Assembly: GCA_964470995.1 (NCBI GenBank) | Contig: CAYYEP010000001.1 | Coordinates: forward strand, 65,813-129,812 | DNA: 64,000 bases | DNA from: an uncultured Candidatus Saccharibacteria bacterium | Lineage (GTDB): Bacteria; Patescibacteriota; Minisyncoccia; Minisyncoccales; UBA5738 | Direction: 5' to 3' | Shown here: in pieces, positions 20,520 through 55,917 of the stretch | Layout: each line of letters starts with the position of its first letter | Position numbering within the stretch: position 1 is the stretch's first letter | Notes under the pieces: generated by a model | Told to the model about the DNA's origin: nothing | The model's input: only the letters and a program-made list of their open reading frames with translations | Database searches by the model: none | Made by a program: the position numbers and the translations under genes

Positions 20520-22247
20520 ATGGACAACATAAATTTACAAACCAAAAAGATTTTTCTCTATGCTCGTAAATCCACGGACGAGCCAGAGCGACAAATTCTT
20601 TCCATTGAAGCGCAACTTTTTGAATTACGAGAATTTGCCAAAAAGGAAGGATTAAATATCGTCCGTGAATTCGTGGAGAGCAAAACCGCCAAAGAGCCGG
20701 GCAGAGAGATTTTTAACAAAATGGTGGCAAGCATAGAGAAAAATGAAGCCGAAGGAATTTTAGCGTGGCACCCTGACCGCTTAGCTCGAAATAGCATAGA
20801 CGGCGGACGGATAATCTATCTCGTAGATACTGGGAAGATTACCACGCTAAAATTTCCAACTTTTTGGTTTGATCCGACACCGCAGGGAAAATTTATGTTG
20901 TCCATTGCTTTTGGGCAATCAAAATATTATGTGGATAATCTTTCGGAAAATATAAAGAGGGGTATTCGCCAGAAATTGCGAAATGGAATATGGCCCGCTT
21001 GGGCGCCACTTGGCTATATAAACGGCAAAAACGCCCGCTGTATCGCCGTGGACAAAGAAAAGGCAAAGTATATCAAGCGGGCTTTTGAAATGTATGCAAC
21101 TGGCGAATACCCCCTCGCTCAAATCCGAAAGATTATCAATTCCTTGGGCTTGGTTGGCAAGAAAGGCAAAATGCTTTCCGTTTCAAATTATCAGTATATG
21201 CTGAAAAATAAAATCTATTACGGAATGATTGAGTATAACGGCGAAATGTATGACGGAAAGCATGAACCGATTATCACAAAGAAACTTTTTGATTCCGTTC
21301 AAGAAGTGATGGTGAGAAAGTCCAAACCGAAAACGCCAAAATTGAAACCGTATGTGTACAGAGGATTTTTCCGTTGCGGAGAGTGCGGTTGTTTCATTAC
21401 CACCGAAACGCAAAAAGGACATAACTATTTGCGTTGTACCAAACGGAAAAATCCTTGCACGCAAAGATATGTTCGCGAAGAAATCATCACTTCTCAAATA
21501 AAGGAGGAAATCAAAAAAGTTTCTTTGTCTTCCGTTTGGGCAAACGCTTCAATCAATTATTTTGAAAATGAAAAAATGAAAATTGCCCAAACGGAAAGCT
21601 CTTTCGCCCAAAAAGCGAGAAATGAGCTTGTGGAGATAGAAACAAAGCTTGATCGTTTGCTTGATTTACAACTAGACGGCAATTTGTCGCAAGTGGAATA
21701 TACCACCAAAAAGCACAAACTCATTCTCGCTAAAAAAGATTTGGAAGAAAAAATCACCGCTTTTGGGCGAAAGAGCAATAATCGGTTCGAACTTGCCATT
21801 GCCTTTCTAAAAGACGCCAACCAAGCCGAAAAATACGCTCAACAAGAAAATCCCGAAAGGATTCGGGATTTTCTCAAAAAGATTGGTTCGAACTTCCGCA
21901 TTACCGACCGCACTTTGGTTTTGGATTTCAAAAATGCTTTCAAAATTGCGGAAAAATACCATGCCGAGGCGCTTTGTGCCGAGGCAGTTTCTTACGATTT
22001 CACAAAAAGTGAAAATTGGCGGAGGGGGCGGGATTCGAACCCACGGACGGCTTTAAGACCGTCAGAGGTTAGCAACCTCTTGCAATGCCGCTATGCGACC
22101 CCTCCACAGATTGATCTGCGATCAAATTGCAAATTCCAAACCCTAAGCACCAATTATCAAGATAATACAAAACGACATTCCAATAATAACGTTAAAGACC
22201 GCTTTGGTCAATCTCAACCCCGAAGAGCGCCTGCGTATTCCCCGTAG
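20520..22247 (+). CDS. large serine recombinase (integrase)
   Basis: N-terminal resolvase domain (IFLYARKSTDEPERQILSIEAQ), recombinase domain, Zn-ribbon CGECGC...CTKRKNPC, coiled-coil region. The ORF runs through tRNA-Ser and stops only at 22247. Confidence 0.85.
   Translation: MDNINLQTKKIFLYARKSTDEPERQILSIEAQLFELREFAKKEGLNIVREFVESKTAKEPGREIFNKMVASIEKNEAEGILAWHPDRLARNSIDGGRIIYLVDTGKITTLKFPTFWFDPTPQGKFMLSIAFGQSKYYVDNLSENIKRGIRQKLRNGIWPAWAPLGYINGKNARCIAVDKEKAKYIKRAFEMYATGEYPLAQIRKIINSLGLVGKKGKMLSVSNYQYMLKNKIYYGMIEYNGEMYDGKHEPIITKKLFDSVQEVMVRKSKPKTPKLKPYVYRGFFRCGECGCFITTETQKGHNYLRCTKRKNPCTQRYVREEIITSQIKEEIKKVSLSSVWANASINYFENEKMKIAQTESSFAQKARNELVEIETKLDRLLDLQLDGNLSQVEYTTKKHKLILAKKDLEEKITAFGRKSNNRFELAIAFLKDANQAEKYAQQENPERIRDFLKKIGSNFRITDRTLVLDFKNAFKIAEKYHAEALCAEAVSYDFTKSENWRRGRDSNPRTALRPSEVSNLLQCRYATPPQIDLRSNCKFQTLSTNYQDNTKRHSNNNVKDRFGQSQPRRAPAYSP
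22017..22105 (-). tRNA. tRNA-Ser (anticodon GCU), CCA encoded
   Basis: GGAGGGG-TC-GCA-TAGCGGCAT-TGC-A-AGAGG-TTGCTAA-CCTCT-long variable arm-GTGGG-TTCGAAT-CCCGC-CCCCTCC-G-CCA. Confidence 0.85.
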
Positions 22248-24016: not shown

Positions 24017-25297
24017 TTAATTATTCTTAATTTTTAAAACGGACGGCAACGCCAGCTTGTGGGCGTTGTTCTTTTTGCGGTCGATAACTTTTTGCATTTT
24101 TTTAGGATCGACATTGGCAAGGTAGCAAACCTCTTCGGGCAGAAGCCCCTGGCTTAAAAGTTTTAACGCCGTATCCAACTGGTGGTAAGTCAAACCCAAT
24201 TCTTTTTCGTCGGTCTGGCCGGGCCAAAGAGCCGCGGTGGGCGCCACTTCAATGATTTCACTGGGCAGTTTCAAGCGTTTAGCCATTTCGTAGATCTCGG
24301 TTTTGTAAAGGTCGGCGATCGGCTCAATATCCACCCCCCCGTCGCCGTATTTGGTGAAATAGCCGATCTCCAATTCTGAACGGTTGGTGGTACCAATAAC
24401 CAGCGCTTTTTTTAAATTCGCGTAATAGTAAAGCGCGGTCATCCGGAGGCGGGGCTTCATATTGCCATAAACCAAATTACCTCCGGCGGGCAGGATTTTG
24501 GCAAAATTTTGAATCACTTTGTCCAGATAAACTTTTTCCACCTTCATTTTGAAAGTTTTTTCCAGACGCGCCACATTGTTGCCGAAAGGGCATTTGCGAA
24601 CGAAAGGCATCCAAACAAAGACCGCTTTTTTACCGAGAGTTTTTTGCATGATCGCGGCGGTTACCGCCGAATCGATGCCGCCCGAAACGCCGATGACTGC
24701 GCGGGCCAGCCCGGCGGCCTTCATTCGCTCTTTTATGAAATTGGCAATCCGGTCTTCGGGCAATACCTGGGACTGGGCGATGATTCTGTCTTTGCCTTCG
24801 CCCTCGAGATACTGGACGGCGGCAACCGGTACCGACCCCTTCCAAGACATCCCCGCCCGCATAGCTTCGCGTACCTGGGTGGCGGTCAATCCCCGGCAAA
24901 ACATCGGATGGCAGGCAATTTCGATGCCTGCTTTTTTTGCGCTGGCGGCGGACCAGTCGTTTTGGGTAACCAGAACGAGTTTTTCGGGATTGGTTTTTAA
25001 TATCTGGGACAATTTTTTACCCCAGGCAATATCGTTTAAAAGGTCGGGCAAGCCGAATATCCGGCAATTGGCAATATTGGCCGCGGCAAGCACTTTTTCG
25101 AACATTTCTTTACGCTCTTTGTAGTCCAGCGGATTTTGGGCGGTACCGCTTTCCTGCATACTGCCAATAACAATAAAAAAATCACTGGCTTGAGACGAGA
25201 TCCATTTTATCACTTCCAAATGGCCGTTATGCAAAGGCTGGAACCGGCCTACAAAAACCGGAATTTTTCCTTTAGGTAAAATATATTCTGTTTCCAT
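24017..25297 (-). CDS. fusion of NadM-type nicotinamide-nucleotide adenylyltransferase and NH3-dependent NAD+ synthetase (NadE)
   Basis: N-terminal GRFQPLHNGHLEVIKW (cytidylyltransferase HxGH). C-terminal GVSGGIDSAV PP-loop and the NadE-like remainder. Confidence 0.8.
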   Translation of the reverse strand: METEYILPKGKIPVFVGRFQPLHNGHLEVIKWISSQASDFFIVIGSMQESGTAQNPLDYKERKEMFEKVLAAANIANCRIFGLPDLLNDIAWGKKLSQILKTNPEKLVLVTQNDWSAASAKKAGIEIACHPMFCRGLTATQVREAMRAGMSWKGSVPVAAVQYLEGEGKDRIIAQSQVLPEDRIANFIKERMKAAGLARAVIGVSGGIDSAVTAAIMQKTLGKKAVFVWMPFVRKCPFGNNVARLEKTFKMKVEKVYLDKVIQNFAKILPAGGNLVYGNMKPRLRMTALYYYANLKKALVIGTTNRSELEIGYFTKYGDGGVDIEPIADLYKTEIYEMAKRLKLPSEIIEVAPTAALWPGQTDEKELGLTYHQLDTALKLLSQGLLPEEVCYLANVDPKKMQKVIDRKKNNAHKLALPSVLKIKNN

Positions 25298-35378: not shown

Positions 35379-35639
35379 TTAATCAGCCGGCCCAGGGATA
35401 AAAGATTCCAAAGTTTGGGATGGATCCATATTTTGGCTTGCCCCCCCGCCGGTTTGATTAAAATACATACCCCAAAATACCGCCGACAGCGACATACATA
35501 TTATAATAATCAAGATATATATTTTTTTCTTTTTGTCCGCCTGGCCTAACGGCGCATAAACCACGGTCCGGGCCGGTTTATCCGATTTAAGATAATCGCT
35601 AAGATCGGCAGTTTTATTATCGCCTTTATCTATTTCCAT
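35379..35639 (-). CDS. small membrane protein
   Basis: Start moved to ATG 35639 (MEIDKGDNK...). The upstream part of tracked ORF 35379..35786 overlaps the pilin reading frame. Confidence 0.5.
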   Translation of the reverse strand: MEIDKGDNKTADLSDYLKSDKPARTVVYAPLGQADKKKKIYILIIIICMSLSAVFWGMYFNQTGGGASQNMDPSQTLESFIPGPAD

Positions 35640-35649
35640 TTGAATATGG

Positions 35650-36159
35650 TTACTTTTGGCGCATTCCCACGGTAATCGTACCGGAATAATTATAGGTGGT
35701 TCCGCTACACGTAGTGATTCCCGGGCTTGTCTTCGTTGTTTTTTCCAAACGATATACCAACATATACCATTGCCGACTACACCCACCGCTCAAGGAATAA
35801 TAAGTATATGTGTATTTTCCGGTAACACCCGCCCAGCTCCCCGATGAATTAACCGGATCCCCGGGCAGTGTTGTCAGATATGGATTTAGCGCCGTCTGCA
35901 GAGTTGCTCAACTCGAATCATTGCTGTTGGTCCAGCCGCTATTCGGATAAGTCGCGCCTCCAGATAGCGGATATTGGTTGTTTTGCAAATAATATAATTC
36001 CAAAGCTCTCCTTATCTGATCAACATCGCTCATTCTCCGCGCATCGCGCGCTTTGGCGCGCGAACCGGCCGTCCCCACCAAAATCACCCCAGCCAGCATG
36101 CTGATAATCGAAATAACCACCAAAAGCTCGATGAGCGTAAAACCTTTGCGTGATACCAT
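35650..36159 (-). pseudogene. type IV pilin-like protein with one in-frame TGA (35910-35908)
   Basis: Prepilin N-terminus GFTLIELLVVISIISMLAG. After ...TNSNDSS-TGA the same frame continues ATLQTALNPYLTTLPGDPVNSSGSWAGVTGKYTYTYYSLSGGCSRQWYMLVYRLE...* to TAA at 35652-35650. Confidence 0.7.
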
Positions 36160-40540: not shown

Positions 40541-41173
40541 TTAATTATGGCTGGTACGGCGCATTATTTCTTTGTTGCGGGTAAGTTCGGCGATAGTGCC
40601 GGCAACAGCCCGGTTGGTGCGCGCGCGAGTGGCGCTATCGAGCTTTTTGAAACCGCCCAATTCGGAAACGCTGCCGCCGAGAGCCCGCCGGGCGGCATCA
40701 TTGGCTTTCCCCTTGTGCACGTACGAATTCCAACCAACCTTTTTGCCCTCGATATTGTCAATTATACCTTTGGCGACCCGCGTCTTGTTTTCGGCGGTTT
40801 GCATCCCTGGGGTAAGAAACGCATCAAAGGCCTTGTTTTTGTCCATTATTTGAATGGTTTTTTTGATAGTGGAATTAACTGACGCCGAAGAATTGTATTC
40901 GAGCAGGCCCTTTTCGGGTTTGTTATTTTTACCGTCATTCGCACCAGACGCATTGGCAGTGCCGCTTTCCCGCGTTTTCAGTTCGCGGCGCTGGCGGCCC
41001 CGAGCGTAAAGAGAATTTAGACTTTCTTTGCCGAACCTCGATTTGCCGCCAAAACCCGAAGACATACCGATGCTGGTATCGTTTTTGCCAAATTGCTTAT
41101 CCTGTCCGATTTTAAAACCGCCGCTTAGGCCGTAATCGCTATTCATTGATGAGTCGCCCGGATCGAAAGACAT
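40541..41173 (-). CDS. hypothetical low-complexity (Gly/Ser/Lys-rich) protein
   Basis: 210-aa ORF. Confidence 0.5.
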   Translation of the reverse strand: MSFDPGDSSMNSDYGLSGGFKIGQDKQFGKNDTSIGMSSGFGGKSRFGKESLNSLYARGRQRRELKTRESGTANASGANDGKNNKPEKGLLEYNSSASVNSTIKKTIQIMDKNKAFDAFLTPGMQTAENKTRVAKGIIDNIEGKKVGWNSYVHKGKANDAARRALGGSVSELGGFKKLDSATRARTNRAVAGTIAELTRNKEIMRRTSHN

Positions 41174-41188
41174 GGTTAATATTGAAAT

Positions 41189-42223
41189 TTAGAACAGTTC
41201 GAGAAGCTTTACGAAAAAGAGGAAATATAAGAGAAGAAAAAGAATCCCCTGACCGGCACCGATCTTTTGAGAAACCGCGGCCACTCCCAATAAAACCGAG
41301 GCGGCCGCCAGAAACGGCAAACCAACCGCAAGGATAGCACCGCCAAAAACCAAGGGGGAGAACAGCGACGCCGCGCCGCAAACCAGCAGCAGATTAGCCG
41401 CGGTGGCCGCAAAAAGATTGCCTAAAGTCAGATCCCCTTTCCGGGACCGGATAATTGATACGCCGCCGAACATTTCGGGCATCGCGGTACCAATCGACAA
41501 CGCTACCATTGCCGTGACCGCGGCCGATATCTTCATAATATCGGAAATCCCGACCAGCGAAGCAACAGTAAAATTTGAAGCCGCTACCAACACAAGGCCT
41601 CCCCCCGAAAGCAGGCCGATCATTTTCAAAAAAGAGCGGCGGCCAAGCGCACCGACAGTTTCCAATTTTTTTTCCAGGCGCGTCGGCAGCAGTTGCACGA
41701 TCCGCGCCACGGCGGCACTGCCCAATAGCTCGGGAGTGATTACATCGCGAGCAGTAATACCGCGGGGCCGCGCCGAATAAGAATAAGCGGCATAAACAAA
41801 AAACGCCAGAATCATCAATATGCCTTCGGGAGCGTTAATGCGGCCATCGGCGGCCACCAAGCAAAAAATCGCGACCGCGGAAGCGAACAGCGGCAAGTCG
41901 GTATTGATATATTCACTTTTTAAGAGCAAGGATCCGGCCGAAAACGCACCCAAGCCGGCAACCAACAGGATATTGGCAATCGATGAACCAATAACCACGG
42001 CTACCGCGAGCTCCGTCTGACCCTGCTGGACCGCGGCAAGCGCGGCTCCCATTTCCGGCATTGCCACGGCAATAAGAGCCGCCGGCAGAGAAATATCAGC
42101 TTCGCGCACGCCAAAAATCCGCGCGGCGCGGCGCAAGCCAAGAATAAGCCAGTCCGAAGCTTTAATAAGAGCACAGACCGAGGTAATGAATATTAATGAC
42201 CAGACTAGAAGCTCCATAATCAA
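41189..42223 (-). CDS. Ca2+/cation antiporter (CaCA, YrbG-like)
   Basis: Two alpha-repeat regions (GSSIANILLV; GTAMPEM), about 10 TM helices. Confidence 0.8.
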   Translation of the reverse strand: MIMELLVWSLIFITSVCALIKASDWLILGLRRAARIFGVREADISLPAALIAVAMPEMGAALAAVQQGQTELAVAVVIGSSIANILLVAGLGAFSAGSLLLKSEYINTDLPLFASAVAIFCLVAADGRINAPEGILMILAFFVYAAYSYSARPRGITARDVITPELLGSAAVARIVQLLPTRLEKKLETVGALGRRSFLKMIGLLSGGGLVLVAASNFTVASLVGISDIMKISAAVTAMVALSIGTAMPEMFGGVSIIRSRKGDLTLGNLFAATAANLLLVCGAASLFSPLVFGGAILAVGLPFLAAASVLLGVAAVSQKIGAGQGILFLLLYFLFFVKLLELF

Positions 42224-42325: not shown

Positions 42326-45300
42326 TTAACACTTTTTAATGCCTACCCAAAGCGGTTGATTATCCACATTCACTGATTTTTCGGCCGCAAGCTTGGCCGG
42401 TTTTTCAAACCTTACCCCGGCGGCTTTGGTTTCGCGCGCGATCAAGCTCTGGTTTTTTTGGACGGCGGCGAATAAATCTCCTTCGGTTTTGATGAAAGCA
42501 ATAATCTTGTCGGCCGGAGTGAATTTAGCTTTTTTGCGCAGTTCCTGGATATTGCGCATCACTTCGCGCACATTTCCCTCTTCGCGCAGTTCGGGAGTAA
42601 TGTTCCAATCGAGCTCCATAGGAACAGCCAGAGCGGAGTCGAACTCCACGGCTTTAACATTAATCTCTTCAGCCAGAAGATCCCGGAGATCATTACCAAA
42701 TGGTTTTACCTTGCCGCCAACAATCAGCTTTGCCAACGGCTGGCGAATCTTGACCGCATGCTGGGCGCGCTGGGCAAGCGCCAGGGTAACCAGTTCGCGC
42801 ACTTTGGCCATTTGCTCATTCAGGGCGGCATCGTTTTTTTGGGCTTTTACCGCCGGCCAGCTTTCCAGATGCACCGACTTGGCCTTGGCGTAACCATTGC
42901 CTGACACTCCCTGATAAACCTCTTCGGCAATAAACGGCGCGAAGGGCGCAATAATACGGGCCAAGTTTTCCAGAACGTAAGCATAAACTTTGGCGGCGGC
43001 AACCAGTTCGGCGCGGTTTTGCGGCTGTTGCAGCCGGCGGCGCATCCGGCGCACATACCATAACGAAAGGTCGTTAATCGTAAACGATTCGATACCGCGC
43101 GCGGCCGCGACAATATCGTATTTATCCAGAAGAACCGAGGTGTCGGCGACTATCCGGGACAAACGCGCCACGATCCAGCGATCCAGAATATTAACGGGCG
43201 CGATGGTTGAAGGAGCCTTTACTCCGGGAGCATAAGTATTCAGAAAAACGTAACAATTCCAGAATGTAAGCAGAAATTTTTTGAGCGCGCCATCCAAATC
43301 GGACTCTTTGTAGAGCTTTGGGTCGCCCGGCTCGTTGACGGTGTAAAAATACCACCGCACGGCATCAGCGCCGTACTTTTGCACCATATCCCAGGGATTA
43401 ATGACATTGCCTTTGGATTTGGACATTTTATCCCCTTTCTCGTCCAAAACATGGCCAAGGGAAACAACATTTTTATAAGACGCTTTAAACCCAAGTACCG
43501 TCGCGACCGACAGCAAAGTATAGAACCACCCGCGCGTCTGGTCGATGGCTTCGGAAATAAAATCCGCGGGATAAAGTTTGGGAGGCACTAATTTGGACGG
43601 TGTTTTCCCCGACGGGCCGACTGCGCCGGAGGCGACGCCGTGCCAAGGCCAATGCTGCTGGGCAAAAGGCATCGAACCGGAGTCCAACCAGCAGTCGCAA
43701 ACCTGGGGCACACGGTGCATCCGGCCGGCACACTTGGGGCAGACCGGCGTTACGCCATCAATGAACGGACGGTGCAAATCGAGTTCCATATTATCATTGA
43801 ACGGCAATTGTTTGAATTCAACCGGACGACATTCAGCAGTGGCAATCCTTTTTATTTTTCCGGAATAACGCTGTTCGATGATATCTTTCAAATCCATACC
43901 TTTAAGCGTCCATTCCAGCATGGTCAGGGGCATTTCGTGGGAAATGATAACGATATTTTTGCCGGCGTATTTTTGGTCGATTTCGGATAAAAAATCATAG
44001 ACGCGGCGGCGCAAACCGATAAGGCTCTCGCCTCTTTTGGGTTTGGCCGAAAAGCGATTTGCTTTGGTGCCAATATAATCCCAATAAACTTTAGGATCTT
44101 TGCCGTTGAGTTCGCCGACATTGACTTCGCGCAGGCGTTTGTCGTAAACAACTTTGGCGCCAGTGGCTTCGGAAATGATTTGCGCGGTTTCTTTCGTTCG
44201 CAAAATATCGGAGGCGATTATCAGATCTATTTTCGCCGATTTGGCCAGTTTTTTGGCGTTAAGCGCGATCTTTTTTTTGCCTTTTTCGGTGAGCGGCAAA
44301 GGCGCGGGTTCGGGCCAACAGCTGGCGATCTTTTTTATTTGCCGAAGCGACTCGCCGTGGCGGAAAATAAAATATTTGTTGGCTGAATAGCGGCGCGACA
44401 ACATCTCGGAAACCGAACCGATAAGATCGGTATGGCCGCAGCTGCATTTCCAGATTGGAAGAGGCGTTCCCCAGTAACGGTCGCGAGATACGGCCCAGTC
44501 TTTCACCTCTCGCAGCCATTCGCCGAAGCGGCCTTCTTTCAGATAAGCAGGATACCAGTTGATGGTCTGGTTATTTTTAATCAATTGCGCGCGCAATTCA
44601 GTCATTTTAATGAACCAACTCAAGCGGGCGTAATACAGCAACGGAGTCTTACAACGCCAACAGAACGGATAGTCGTGCTCATAAGGAACGGCGGCGAACA
44701 GCAACCCCCTATCTTTGAGATCATCAATAATCGACGGATCGGCATCCTTAACGAATACGCCCGCCCATTTGGCGACATCCAAAGAGAAAGTGCCGTCTTC
44801 GCCGACGTTTAAGATTATTGGAAATTCCGGCTGGCCGGAAGCTTTAAGCTTTTTGTTTTCTTTTTTAACCGCTTCCATATCTTCGGCACCGAACGCCGGC
44901 GCGATATGCACGATACCGGTGCCGTCTTCGGTGGATACAAAATCCGCCCCGATGACCCGGTAAATGGTTTTTTCGGATTCCAGGCTTGCCGGGAATACCG
45001 CTTGGTAACGCAAACCGATAAGATCGGTCCCATTCATTTCGCCAACAATCTCATAGCCATCGCCCAAAACTTCCAGACGGCTTTTTGCCAAAATAAAAAT
45101 TTCCGGACTGTCTTTGGGCTTGGCTTTAACATAGTCGATCGCGGGATTGACCGCCGCGGCCACATTGGCCGGCAAAGTCCAAGGAGTAGTTGTCCAGACA
45201 AGCAATGAACTGTTCTCGAACTCCGGATTCAACACCGCAAACTTCACGTAAACGGAGGGGTCTTTCACTTTTTTGTAACCCTGCGCGACTTCGTGGCTCG

Positions 45301-45853
45301 AAAGGGCCGTGCCGCAGCGCGAACAATAAGGAATGACTTTATAATCCTGAAATAAAAGTTTTTTGTCCCAGGCGGTTTTTAAAATGTGCCACACCGATTC
45401 CATATATTTGGGATCGTAGGTAATGTAGGCATTCTCGAAATCAAGCCAGTAACCGATGCGTTCGGTTAGGTTCTGCCATTCGCCAATCTGCTCAAAGACG
45501 GAATCTTTGCATTCCTTATTAAATTGCTTGATCCCGTATGTTTCGATCTCTTTTTTATTATGAAGCCCCAATTTTTTTTCGATCTGCAATTCCACGGGCA
45601 AGCCATGAGTATCCCATCCGGCGCGGCGCTGGACGCGAAAGCCGCGCATGGTCTTGTAACGGCAAACCATATCTTTGAAAACGCGGGTTTCGACATGATG
45701 GATACCCGGTCTGGCGTTGGCCGTGGGCGGACCTTCGTAGAATACGAACTCCTTGGCACCCTTCTTGCGGCCGCTGACGGATTTTTCGAAGACCGAATGT
45801 TTTTTCCAGAATTCGATTGTCTTTTGCTCCTTCTCGTTAAAATTTAATTCCAT
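42326..45853 (-). CDS. ileS: isoleucine--tRNA ligase (type 2) with an inserted histidine-phosphatase (PGAM-like) domain
   Basis: PPTANARPGIHH, TTTPWTLPAN editing domain, WKCSCGH, DLHRPFID, DKMSKSKGN. Start moved to ATG 45853 (MELNFNEKEQ). Insert at 43805-44380. Confidence 0.9.
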   Translation of the reverse strand: MELNFNEKEQKTIEFWKKHSVFEKSVSGRKKGAKEFVFYEGPPTANARPGIHHVETRVFKDMVCRYKTMRGFRVQRRAGWDTHGLPVELQIEKKLGLHNKKEIETYGIKQFNKECKDSVFEQIGEWQNLTERIGYWLDFENAYITYDPKYMESVWHILKTAWDKKLLFQDYKVIPYCSRCGTALSSHEVAQGYKKVKDPSVYVKFAVLNPEFENSSLLVWTTTPWTLPANVAAAVNPAIDYVKAKPKDSPEIFILAKSRLEVLGDGYEIVGEMNGTDLIGLRYQAVFPASLESEKTIYRVIGADFVSTEDGTGIVHIAPAFGAEDMEAVKKENKKLKASGQPEFPIILNVGEDGTFSLDVAKWAGVFVKDADPSIIDDLKDRGLLFAAVPYEHDYPFCWRCKTPLLYYARLSWFIKMTELRAQLIKNNQTINWYPAYLKEGRFGEWLREVKDWAVSRDRYWGTPLPIWKCSCGHTDLIGSVSEMLSRRYSANKYFIFRHGESLRQIKKIASCWPEPAPLPLTEKGKKKIALNAKKLAKSAKIDLIIASDILRTKETAQIISEATGAKVVYDKRLREVNVGELNGKDPKVYWDYIGTKANRFSAKPKRGESLIGLRRRVYDFLSEIDQKYAGKNIVIISHEMPLTMLEWTLKGMDLKDIIEQRYSGKIKRIATAECRPVEFKQLPFNDNMELDLHRPFIDGVTPVCPKCAGRMHRVPQVCDCWLDSGSMPFAQQHWPWHGVASGAVGPSGKTPSKLVPPKLYPADFISEAIDQTRGWFYTLLSVATVLGFKASYKNVVSLGHVLDEKGDKMSKSKGNVINPWDMVQKYGADAVRWYFYTVNEPGDPKLYKESDLDGALKKFLLTFWNCYVFLNTYAPGVKAPSTIAPVNILDRWIVARLSRIVADTSVLLDKYDIVAAARGIESFTINDLSLWYVRRMRRRLQQPQNRAELVAAAKVYAYVLENLARIIAPFAPFIAEEVYQGVSGNGYAKAKSVHLESWPAVKAQKNDAALNEQMAKVRELVTLALAQRAQHAVKIRQPLAKLIVGGKVKPFGNDLRDLLAEEINVKAVEFDSALAVPMELDWNITPELREEGNVREVMRNIQELRKKAKFTPADKIIAFIKTEGDLFAAVQKNQSLIARETKAAGVRFEKPAKLAAEKSVNVDNQPLWVGIKKC

Positions 45854-45947
45854 AAATGTATTGTATGGTTTATCAATCCAAATGTAGCAAATTTTACCAA
45901 TATTTAAAGGGAGAGCGCCATAAAACAAAATCGGGCATCTATTTAGC

Positions 45948-45973
45948 AAAAAACGGACTCCTCACGGGATCCG
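45948..45973 (-). terminator. terminator upstream of ileS
   Basis: Minus sense CGGATCC-CGTGA-GGAGTCCG-TTTTTT. Confidence 0.55.
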
Positions 45974-54829: not shown

Positions 54830-55917
54830 GATTACCTACCCGCACCCCTCAATCCGACCGCATAATTAAATTAATACTTTCCCTTGTAATGATACCACGC
54901 CTGCGTGGCATTTTTGTTTTTTAAGCTCTCTGGCGAATGCCTCGGCAGGCGTTTTGTAGCCAAGGCATTCCATAAAGCGGTTGCGGAGTTTGCACGCTGC
55001 CATCGCAAAATACGACGGCGGGCATTTGCTCAAATCGGAACCCTTTTTAACATAACGGCGGATCGCTTTGTTGCGGTTTTCAACCGTTCCTTTTTCGTTT
55101 GGCGATTGCGGATGGCAGAAGAATATTGCTGCGTCGATAAGATCGGCAAGCTCGGCGTGTTTTTGGAAAGAAATATCATTGTCGATAGTTAAACTTTCAA
55201 CCGGATACGGACCAAGCAATTCATTAACCGCACGGTTGACCGTGGCGGTATCGCGATTCACGAGATAACGCAGGAACGGATATCGAGTTTTGCGTTCCAC
55301 GATCACCAAGAGCGATCCTTTGCCATCTTTTCCCGATTCGATGAAATCGCCTTCATAATGGCCGAATTGAAGCCGATTTTGGACAATCTTGGGTCTTCGG
55401 TCGATCATTCTTCGGCCGTCGATGGCAACCGATCGGCCGCGCTTGGGTCCGCCTCTTTTCTTTACCGCCCGGGAATACAGATGCCGTTCCAGATTCCGGC
55501 CCAATGGGCTGTAAACAAATTTGTAGATGGCTTTTGTACTTGCATATTCGATTTTCTTTTCAATGTTTTTCAATCTTCCTGAAATTCCTTGCGGAGTTTG
55601 ATCGTCTTCAATGTTTGTTTCCACAAAATCCCGCAGTTCAAAATTTGTCGACACCTTCAGGCATTGTATCTTGGATTCTCGTCTCGAAACATATGCTTTG
55701 TGGTGGGCTTTTTGGGCAGTATAAATACCGTTTACCGAATTGCGGTTGATTTCATCAACAACGCTCGATTTGCTCCGATCCAGTTTGTCGGCAATGAATT
55801 GCCGGCTTTTGTTTTGTTTCAAATACTTTTCAATCCGCTGCCTCTCGTAGAGGTAAAAATGTTGAAATTTGCTCATACAATTTTATTGTACAAGCGGTCG
55901 GATTCAAAGGTAAATCT
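54830..55917 (-). mobile_element. IS30-family insertion sequence
   Basis: Imperfect terminal inverted repeats GATTACCT...AATCCGACCGC (54830-54861) and GCGGTCGGATT...AGGTAAATC (55894-55916). Confidence 0.75.
54866..55876 (-). CDS. IS30 family transposase
   Basis: N-terminal HTH and DDE region HYEGDFI...TIDNDISF...PNEKGTVENRNKAIRRY. Confidence 0.88.
   Translation of the reverse strand: MSKFQHFYLYERQRIEKYLKQNKSRQFIADKLDRSKSSVVDEINRNSVNGIYTAQKAHHKAYVSRRESKIQCLKVSTNFELRDFVETNIEDDQTPQGISGRLKNIEKKIEYASTKAIYKFVYSPLGRNLERHLYSRAVKKRGGPKRGRSVAIDGRRMIDRRPKIVQNRLQFGHYEGDFIESGKDGKGSLLVIVERKTRYPFLRYLVNRDTATVNRAVNELLGPYPVESLTIDNDISFQKHAELADLIDAAIFFCHPQSPNEKGTVENRNKAIRRYVKKGSDLSKCPPSYFAMAACKLRNRFMECLGYKTPAEAFARELKKQKCHAGVVSLQGKVLI

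Follow-up and report, generated by a model that had tools for sequence, protein, structure and literature searches.

The stretch of DNA analysed here, hereafter called the window, is 64 kb long, and it comes from a bacterium of the Paceibacteria type (Patescibacteria/CPR) with the standard genetic code. On the minus strand of the window lies a prepilin open reading frame (ORF) that begins with ATG, has the N-terminus MVSRKGFTLIELLVV, and is closed by a TGA codon directly after the residues GWTNSNDSS (Table 1). Past this TGA, the same frame remains open for 85 further codons, which start with ATLQTALNPYLTT, end with TVGMRQK, and are closed by a TAA at 35652-35650; a gap of 10 nucleotides separates this TAA from the ATG of the next ORF at 35639. 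The codons around the interruption are AGT TGA GCA, and a full-length pilin would read NSNDSSWATLQTALNPY across codon 84. A previous, sequence-only reading of this locus described the same end of the ORF, the same 85 codons, and the same gap, and its coordinates were found to be exact. It further proposed that a Trp is expected at the stop, that a change of TGG to TGA is the simplest explanation, and that the TGA is either a very recent nonsense mutation or population variant, or a codon that is read through or decoded as Trp. We report herein that W84* (the TGA at codon 84) is very probably a real and recent G-to-A nonsense allele (TGG to TGA) of a type IV pilin-like gene that appears to undergo repeated, short-lived loss.

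Table 1. Positions of the pilin gene, its stop sites, and the adjoining gene in the window
Feature	Position	Strand	Evidence or remark
Truncated prepilin ORF, 83 codons and TGA	35908..36159	-	Reading frames; PF07963, 33.6 bits (cut-off 21.2); modelled helix 9-60
Premature TGA at codon 84 (Trp84, TGG)	35908..35910	-	TGG in contigs L001, L003, and L098; W84 invariant in 120 homologs
Untranslated remainder of the pilin, codons 85-169 and TAA	35650..35907	-	Match to P0002, 63% identity, E=7e-41; dN/dS 0.12 relative to the L101 ortholog
Trp109 codon, TGG in the window, TGA in L001	35833..35835	-	Second stop allele; product P0007, 108 aa
Gln62 codon, CAA in the window, TAA in L098	35974..35976	-	Third stop allele; C to T at 35976; product P0123, 61 aa
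Gln59 codon, CAA in the window, TAA in L101	35983..35985	-	Fourth stop allele, sister lineage
Small membrane-protein gene, 86 aa (orf86)	35379..35639	-	Begins 10 nucleotides past the normal stop of the pilin; G7 run at 35441-35447

The interrupted pilin gene and its surroundings

The 85 codons beyond the stop align without a gap to residues 88-171 of P0002, an intact positional ortholog of 171 aa whose last residue is thereby reached (Table 1). The contig that encodes P0002 has the same gene order as the window, i.e. RecO, a DUF11-type protein of 555 aa, GlyRS, the pilin, an M16 peptidase, and an AI-2E transporter. The end-to-end alignment implies that the frame past the stop is not open by chance, and it bears out the suggestion of the sequence-only reading that this part is typical of the pilin class. 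When the reconstructed 169-aa protein was used as a query, 5,717 homologs were recovered, and the best 120 of these were mostly 160-200 aa long; the source names given for a few of the 120 include Paceibacterota and Patescibacteria. Trp84 is invariant across the best 120 of the 5,717 homologs, with the consensus SSWxTLQTALxPY, so that a Trp is indeed to be expected at the stop. In the same alignment of the best 120, Trp109, Cys127, and Cys151 are each conserved in at least 90% of the sequences. Both cysteines are encoded 3' of the stop.

Searches for closely related loci gave little. Exact 33-nucleotide patterns around the stop had no match in genome contigs and none in metagenome contigs. A search for related loci in genome contigs was swamped by the generic FTLIELLVV motif, its best match being a Zambryskiibacteriota MAG with 44% identity; Paceibacterota MAGs were also matched, which provides taxonomic context only. 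The equivalent search of metagenome contigs yielded nothing closer than 55%.

The 83-aa product of the window gene retains the class III signal peptide (MVSRKG/FTLIELLVV) and the long N-terminal helix, and is devoid of a globular head. Its prepilin N-methylation motif is present (Gly at -1, Phe at +1, and Glu at +5), and the Pfam family N_methyl (PF07963) is matched at 32-33.6 bits, well above the cut-off of 21.2. An AlphaFold model of the intact allele, P0122 (mean pLDDT, 94.2), has the lollipop shape of a pilin, with a long helix (residues 9-60), a second, short one (83-91), and strands at 119-121, 131-136, and 162-167. According to this model, the head that is lost through W84* comprises the helix at 83-91, the beta strands, and the C127/C151 pair. 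When the model was used in a structure search, PDB matches 1-9 were all type IV pilins, with weak scores (E of at least 0.024; TM, 0.30-0.45).

The gene thus resembles those of type IV pilins and of GspG-like pseudopilins of the type II secretion system (T2SS) in its class III signal peptide, its N-terminal helix (some 50 residues), its beta-sheet head, and its conserved pair of cysteines. It differs from them in that the window gene is cut at codon 84 and specifies the signal peptide and helix only. It also differs from GspG in that the reconstructed full-length protein scores just under the threshold of PF08334 (T2SS protein G), at 19.8 versus 21 bits; a precomputed match to PF08334 is recorded for some homologs of the pilin. 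An uninterrupted ORF that encodes the head is absent from the window, where residues 1-83 alone are encoded, and the C-terminal part has neither a start codon nor a signal peptide of its own. Because the truncated product would be unable to form a normal pilus subunit, W84* is very probably a genuine loss-of-function nonsense allele. The gene stands isolated among housekeeping genes, and the 64-kb window contains no second prepilin motif and no pilus machinery (prepilin peptidase, assembly ATPase, or platform protein).

The small gene that follows the pilin, orf86, has no Pfam match, and no homology was found between it and the small ORF that follows the pilin in contig L005. A homolog of orf86 lies directly after the pilin in contig L006 and ends in SEQFIP, which agrees with the frame given by the run of seven Gs in the window. 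This run is also G7 in contig L003, and is G6 in contig L098, where the resulting frameshift alters the last ~20 codons of orf86. The difference could represent slipped-strand variation, a second lesion in a pilin-orf86 unit, or a homopolymer error of assembly; the two genes may form such a unit.

Several other features of the window are worth recording. A class I tRNA synthetase of 1,207 aa with IleRS-like domains (tRNA-synt_1, Anticodon_1, and DUF5915) is encoded at 42326-45949 on the minus strand, and a histidine phosphatase domain (His_Phos_1) is inserted in the middle of its catalytic domain; the same arrangement is found in an ortholog of 1,166 aa (L004/L005). A protein of 426 aa, encoded at 24017-25297 (minus strand), combines an N-terminal domain of the cytidylyltransferase type with an NAD synthase domain and may be a fused enzyme of NAD biosynthesis. 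At 20520-22247 on the plus strand is an ORF of 575 aa for a large serine recombinase (Resolvase, Recombinase, and Zn_ribbon_recom domains), the 3' end of which overlaps the oppositely oriented gene for tRNA-Ser(GCT) (22017-22105, minus strand); this overlap may mark the edge of an element integrated at the tRNA gene. Finally, an ORF of 336 aa at 54866-55876 (minus strand), located between AlaRS and a flavodoxin-like gene, resembles the transposases of insertion sequences, with HTH_38 and rve domains, the latter at 24.1 bits and under the Pfam cut-off.

Stop alleles of the pilin gene in other samples

On the minus strand, W84* results from a G-to-A change at 35908 (C to T on the plus strand). 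The same allele is found in L002 (Logan, SRR8925774), which matches the window with 100% identity over 7,291 bp, and in L099 (run SRR8925805), which represents a haplotype with 5 other differences from the window. An NCBI record, with a longest contig of 150,794 bp, likewise contains the 83-aa product. SRR8925774 and SRR8925805 have neighbouring accession numbers and perhaps belong to one project, so the independence of these two samples is uncertain. No paper that mentions the run or assembly accessions was retrieved by searching full texts. The intact allele is found in L003 (SRR10769896), which is 99.69% identical to the window over 1,910 bp, has TGG at codon 84, and encodes the 169-aa product P0122. 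The change proposed in the sequence-only reading, TGG to TGA, is therefore the one that separates the window from a near-identical strain, and the occurrence of an intact allele so close to the window, together with the invariance of W84, upholds its suggestion of a very recent nonsense mutation or population variant.

Three further stop alleles were identified. The first, W109*, is carried by L001 (ENA ERZ27315071; 535 bp), in which codon 84 is TGG and codon 109 is TGA. Only 2 of its 535 bases, those at 35908 and 35833, are different from the window, and at both sites in GlyRS where L003 differs, L001 has the bases of the window. Since these GlyRS sites are shared and the two stop sites are the only differences, the common ancestor of L001 and the window was intact, and each gained its own stop. 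The second, Q62*, is carried by L098 (Logan, SRR20705930), which is 99.85% identical to the window over 2,659 bp and has TGG at codon 84. The third, Q59*, is carried by L101 (Logan, SRR27751817), a member of a sister lineage with about 83-86% nucleotide identity and the same gene order; apart from Q59*, its pilin frame is open through to the normal stop. All of these alleles were read from consensus contigs, and the Logan and MEGAHIT contigs may represent low-coverage consensus. Exact look-ups in the collection found none of seven further products that transition-type nonsense changes could give (47, 58, 75, 87, 129, 130, and 167 aa), nor the 126-aa product of one transversion-type change; neither orf192 nor orf86, used as anchors for other look-ups, was on record.

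Some additional variation was noted among these contigs. A comparison of the window with L099 and L100 indicated that L099, which carries W84*, nonetheless shares the state of the SRR10769896 strain with the intact pilin at 5 SNPs (40607-41828), which suggests that co-existing strains have recombined or that the consensus is a mosaic. Three of these 5 SNPs are missense and cluster in codons 33-51 of a 210-aa ORF at 40541-41173. Codon 150 of the pilin (35710-35712) is ACG (Thr) in the window versus GCA (Ala) in L003, a difference of two bases, and the homologs vary between Thr and Ala here as well; recombination over a short tract, or selection on a residue at the surface, may account for it. 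Outside the window, many short prepilin fragments of 58-120 aa occur in related Patescibacteria, on contigs of 2-100 kb (among P0124-P0240). Examples are P0124, P0145, and P0162, which are 105, 100, and 107 aa long and lie on contigs of 3.2, 74.7, and 100 kb, respectively. Some of these fragments may be further truncated pilin alleles of other species; a check at the DNA level covered P0127 only.

Recurrence of the stops and constraint on the gene

Among the near-identical haplotypes, three of the five nucleotide changes within the pilin are nonsense, compared with none of the 16 SNPs outside it (Fisher test, p=0.0075). As the allele of the window had prompted the search, the test was repeated without it, and p was then 0.032; Q59* of the sister lineage was not counted in either case. 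The numbers behind this recurrence are small, being four stop alleles and one intact near-identical allele. Between the window and L101 orthologs, the dN/dS of the pilin is 0.11 overall (dS=0.53), with values of 0.12 for codons 85-169 and 0.095 for the N-terminal half. Judging from these ratios, the whole gene, including the part beyond the stop, was under strong purifying selection through almost the entire time over which the two lineages diverged. Each lineage bears exactly one lesion, which argues that every one of the stops is recent, and secondary decay of the gene was seen in no lineage. As far as can be read from the contigs, the pilin has probably been struck by premature stops independently at least four times.

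We lean towards the view that the stops recur under repeated positive or fluctuating selection. Loss of the pilin would be repeatedly favoured, or would at least reach consensus frequency, on short time scales. The loss would not last, the full-length gene being otherwise held by purifying selection. Surface structures that involve a trade-off would be expected to show such a pattern; a cell that escapes a pilus-binding phage in this way might, for instance, no longer attach to its host. In the Saccharibacterium TM7x, a cultivated Patescibacterium, one type IV pilus is non-essential, mediates host binding, and adds competitive fitness (PMC11623550). In Pseudomonas aeruginosa, phages with type IV pili as their receptor are reported to select for mutations by which the pili are reduced or abolished (PMC13170266). 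These phage-selected mutants resemble the present case in that independent inactivating mutations of pilus genes arose in near-identical cells, and in that the pilus is valuable in the long term and costly under a specific pressure. They differ in that the alleles studied here come from public metagenome assemblies of uncultivated Patescibacteria, and we only infer a role of phage. Nothing in the 64-kb window hints at a phage, and a pilus-binding phage is named here as a conjectural example of such an agent.

A single stop such as W84* is, by itself, ordinary. What appears to be new is the evidence from these alleles for at least four independent and recent stop gains in one conserved gene, which are a fresh example of a known phenomenon. 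Their recurrence makes it likely that antagonistic or fluctuating selection acts on the pilin in this uncultivated lineage of Patescibacteria. If this is true, the pilin would be a candidate for a surface structure recognized by phage, host, or competitor, and its alleles would offer a natural on/off contrast with which the role of the pilus could be studied without cultivation.

The stops might instead recur through relaxed selection, a mutational hotspot, or both, and not through selection for loss, an account that we consider unlikely. Under relaxed selection, cells in these habitats could do without the pilin, for instance owing to paralogous pilins encoded elsewhere in the genome, and stops created by C-to-T transitions of the deamination type would become frequent by drift or hitch-hiking. 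In keeping with this, all four stops are C-to-T or G-to-A transitions, the alleles are few, and the p value corrected for ascertainment is only 0.03. The two TGA sites, both in the context AGY-TGG-GC, are moreover the only GCCCA/TGGGC pentamers in the 535-bp overlap, so that a hotspot could play a part. A dN/dS of 0.11, however, implies that the gene was constrained nearly throughout the divergence of the lineages. In addition, only 14 of the 507 possible transitions in the pilin gene (2.8%) create a stop, a share that neutrality would lead one to expect, whereas three of the five changes observed are nonsense and not a lone synonymous change is found. As for a hotspot, the two TAA alleles are outside the GCCCA context, and the L003 overlap contains two more GCCCA sites, neither of which has changed. 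Deamination at GCCCA as the sole cause was accordingly rejected, as it suits the two TGA sites but not the two TAA sites.

Programmed switching was also considered. The pilC gene of Neisseria is a phase-variable pilus gene that is switched by poly-G tracts. The present locus is similar in that a pilus component is heterogeneous (on or off) at the population level and that orf86, near the pilin, varies between G7 and G6. It is dissimilar in that the four stops of the pilin are substitutions at non-repetitive sites, unprogrammed and slow to revert. Phase variation of the pilin through simple sequence repeats was rejected because all four stops are base substitutions at sites outside repeats.

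UGA as a stop codon, and the less probable readings

A further set of readings denies that the stops are plain loss-of-function alleles. In the broadest of them, the stop alleles might be selected because a short helix-only subunit remodels or blocks the pilus, the two UGA alleles might also be leaky by way of tRNA-Trp, and in either case the stops would act as a population-level dial. If true, point mutations to stop would tune the surface fibre of an ultra-small episymbiont. We regard this as very improbable, and its two components can be weighed separately.

The first component is that Trp is inserted at the UGA of codon 84, and at that of codon 109 in L001, such that full-length pilin is still made. 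This could occur by low-level, near-cognate reading by tRNA-Trp(CCA) or through a special tRNA, and the allele would then be silent or merely weakened. The distinction between nonsense and recoding matters here, since reassignment of UGA to Trp has lately been described elsewhere in this bacterial class, namely in JAKLIH01, a family of Patescibacteriota (order UBA6257, class Minisyncoccia) (PMC13092985). In the JAKLIH01 genomes, UGA is absent from the ends of genes, RF2 is absent, and a tRNA-UCA is present in two of four (PMC13092985). The window is like these genomes in its broad bacterial group and in having TGA where homologs have Trp, and two of the four stop alleles are indeed changes of TGG to TGA at Trp codons. 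It is unlike them in that TGA ends 19 of its 72 long ORFs and occurs in frame in one gene only. Two of the TGA ends, those of the AI-2E transporter and a MetRS-like gene, were confirmed against the ortholog, falling within 1-2 residues of its TAG or TAA end. TGA is a working stop codon in the genome of the window, and genome-wide reassignment of UGA was rejected on these grounds. Three other candidates for genes split by TGA were rejected because they are adjacent, separate genes, each with its own start, which leaves the pilin with the sole in-frame TGA found among the genes of the window.

Signals for local recoding were likewise absent. An Rfam search (E of 1 or less) at the stop of the pilin matched no family, SECIS included, and the predicted fold of the 86 nucleotides that span and follow the stop is no more stable than that of shuffled sequences (z=+1.42). 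Insertion of selenocysteine was rejected in view of the missing SECIS, this z value, and the invariant Trp of the homologs. Programmed read-through was rejected as well, for the stop is not conserved, and orthologs and near-identical strains have TGG. The only tRNA genes in the 64-kb window are two for tRNA-Ser, and it contains no gene for tRNA-Trp, a suppressor tRNA, or a release factor. No tRNA-Trp or prfB gene was found beyond the ends of the window on adjoining contigs, which represent other runs of the same population. Finally, the remaining two stop alleles are TAA at Gln codons, to which decoding of UGA as Trp does not apply. The suggestion of read-through or Trp insertion made in the sequence-only reading thus found no support, and decoding of UGA as Trp appears very improbable. 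As TGA works as a stop, no other gene is split by it, and neither a SECIS nor a stable structure follows it, the TGG-to-TGA allele is best understood as recent nonsense and not as recoding. The TGA of the pilin provides no evidence for an altered genetic code in the host organism.

The second component is that truncation itself is selected, in that a short, helix-only pilin enters the pilus machinery and gives rise to a thin filament or a dominant-negative plug. The four stops, at codons 59, 62, 84, and 109, spare the signal peptide and nearly all of the N-terminal helix, since they lie where the modelled helix (residues 9-60) ends or beyond it, and the first 58 codons yielded no stop allele. 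Before codon 59, however, there is only one site (Q48) at which a transition can create a stop, so the lack of earlier stops carries no statistical weight. The C-terminal half is, moreover, as constrained as the N-terminal half (0.12 versus 0.095), from which it follows that the full-length pilin is the form that functions in the long term. A precedent for a divided pilin exists in Geobacter, where PilA-N and PilA-C are encoded by two conserved, separate genes, each with its own start. The window gene resembles that arrangement in that a short N-terminal pilin, little more than a helix, is followed by DNA that encodes a head. It differs in that the split is a point mutation found in some strains, and that the C-terminal part is without a start or signal. 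A two-gene pilin of the Geobacter type was rejected for the latter reason, as no PilA-C-like partner could be made. Selection for a helix-only pilin seems to have an even slimmer chance of being correct than decoding of UGA as Trp.

The least credible reading, that the TGA is a consensus error of sequencing or assembly and that the true genome has TGG, as do three other near-identical contigs, can hardly be reconciled with the record of the 83-aa product at NCBI, or with the presence of TGA in the window, in the Logan assembly of SRR8925774, and in the SRR8925805 haplotype with its 5 other differences, which makes an error private to one assembly unlikely; nor would random errors be expected to fall four times on stop-creating sites of one gene when none of the 16 other variants creates a stop.
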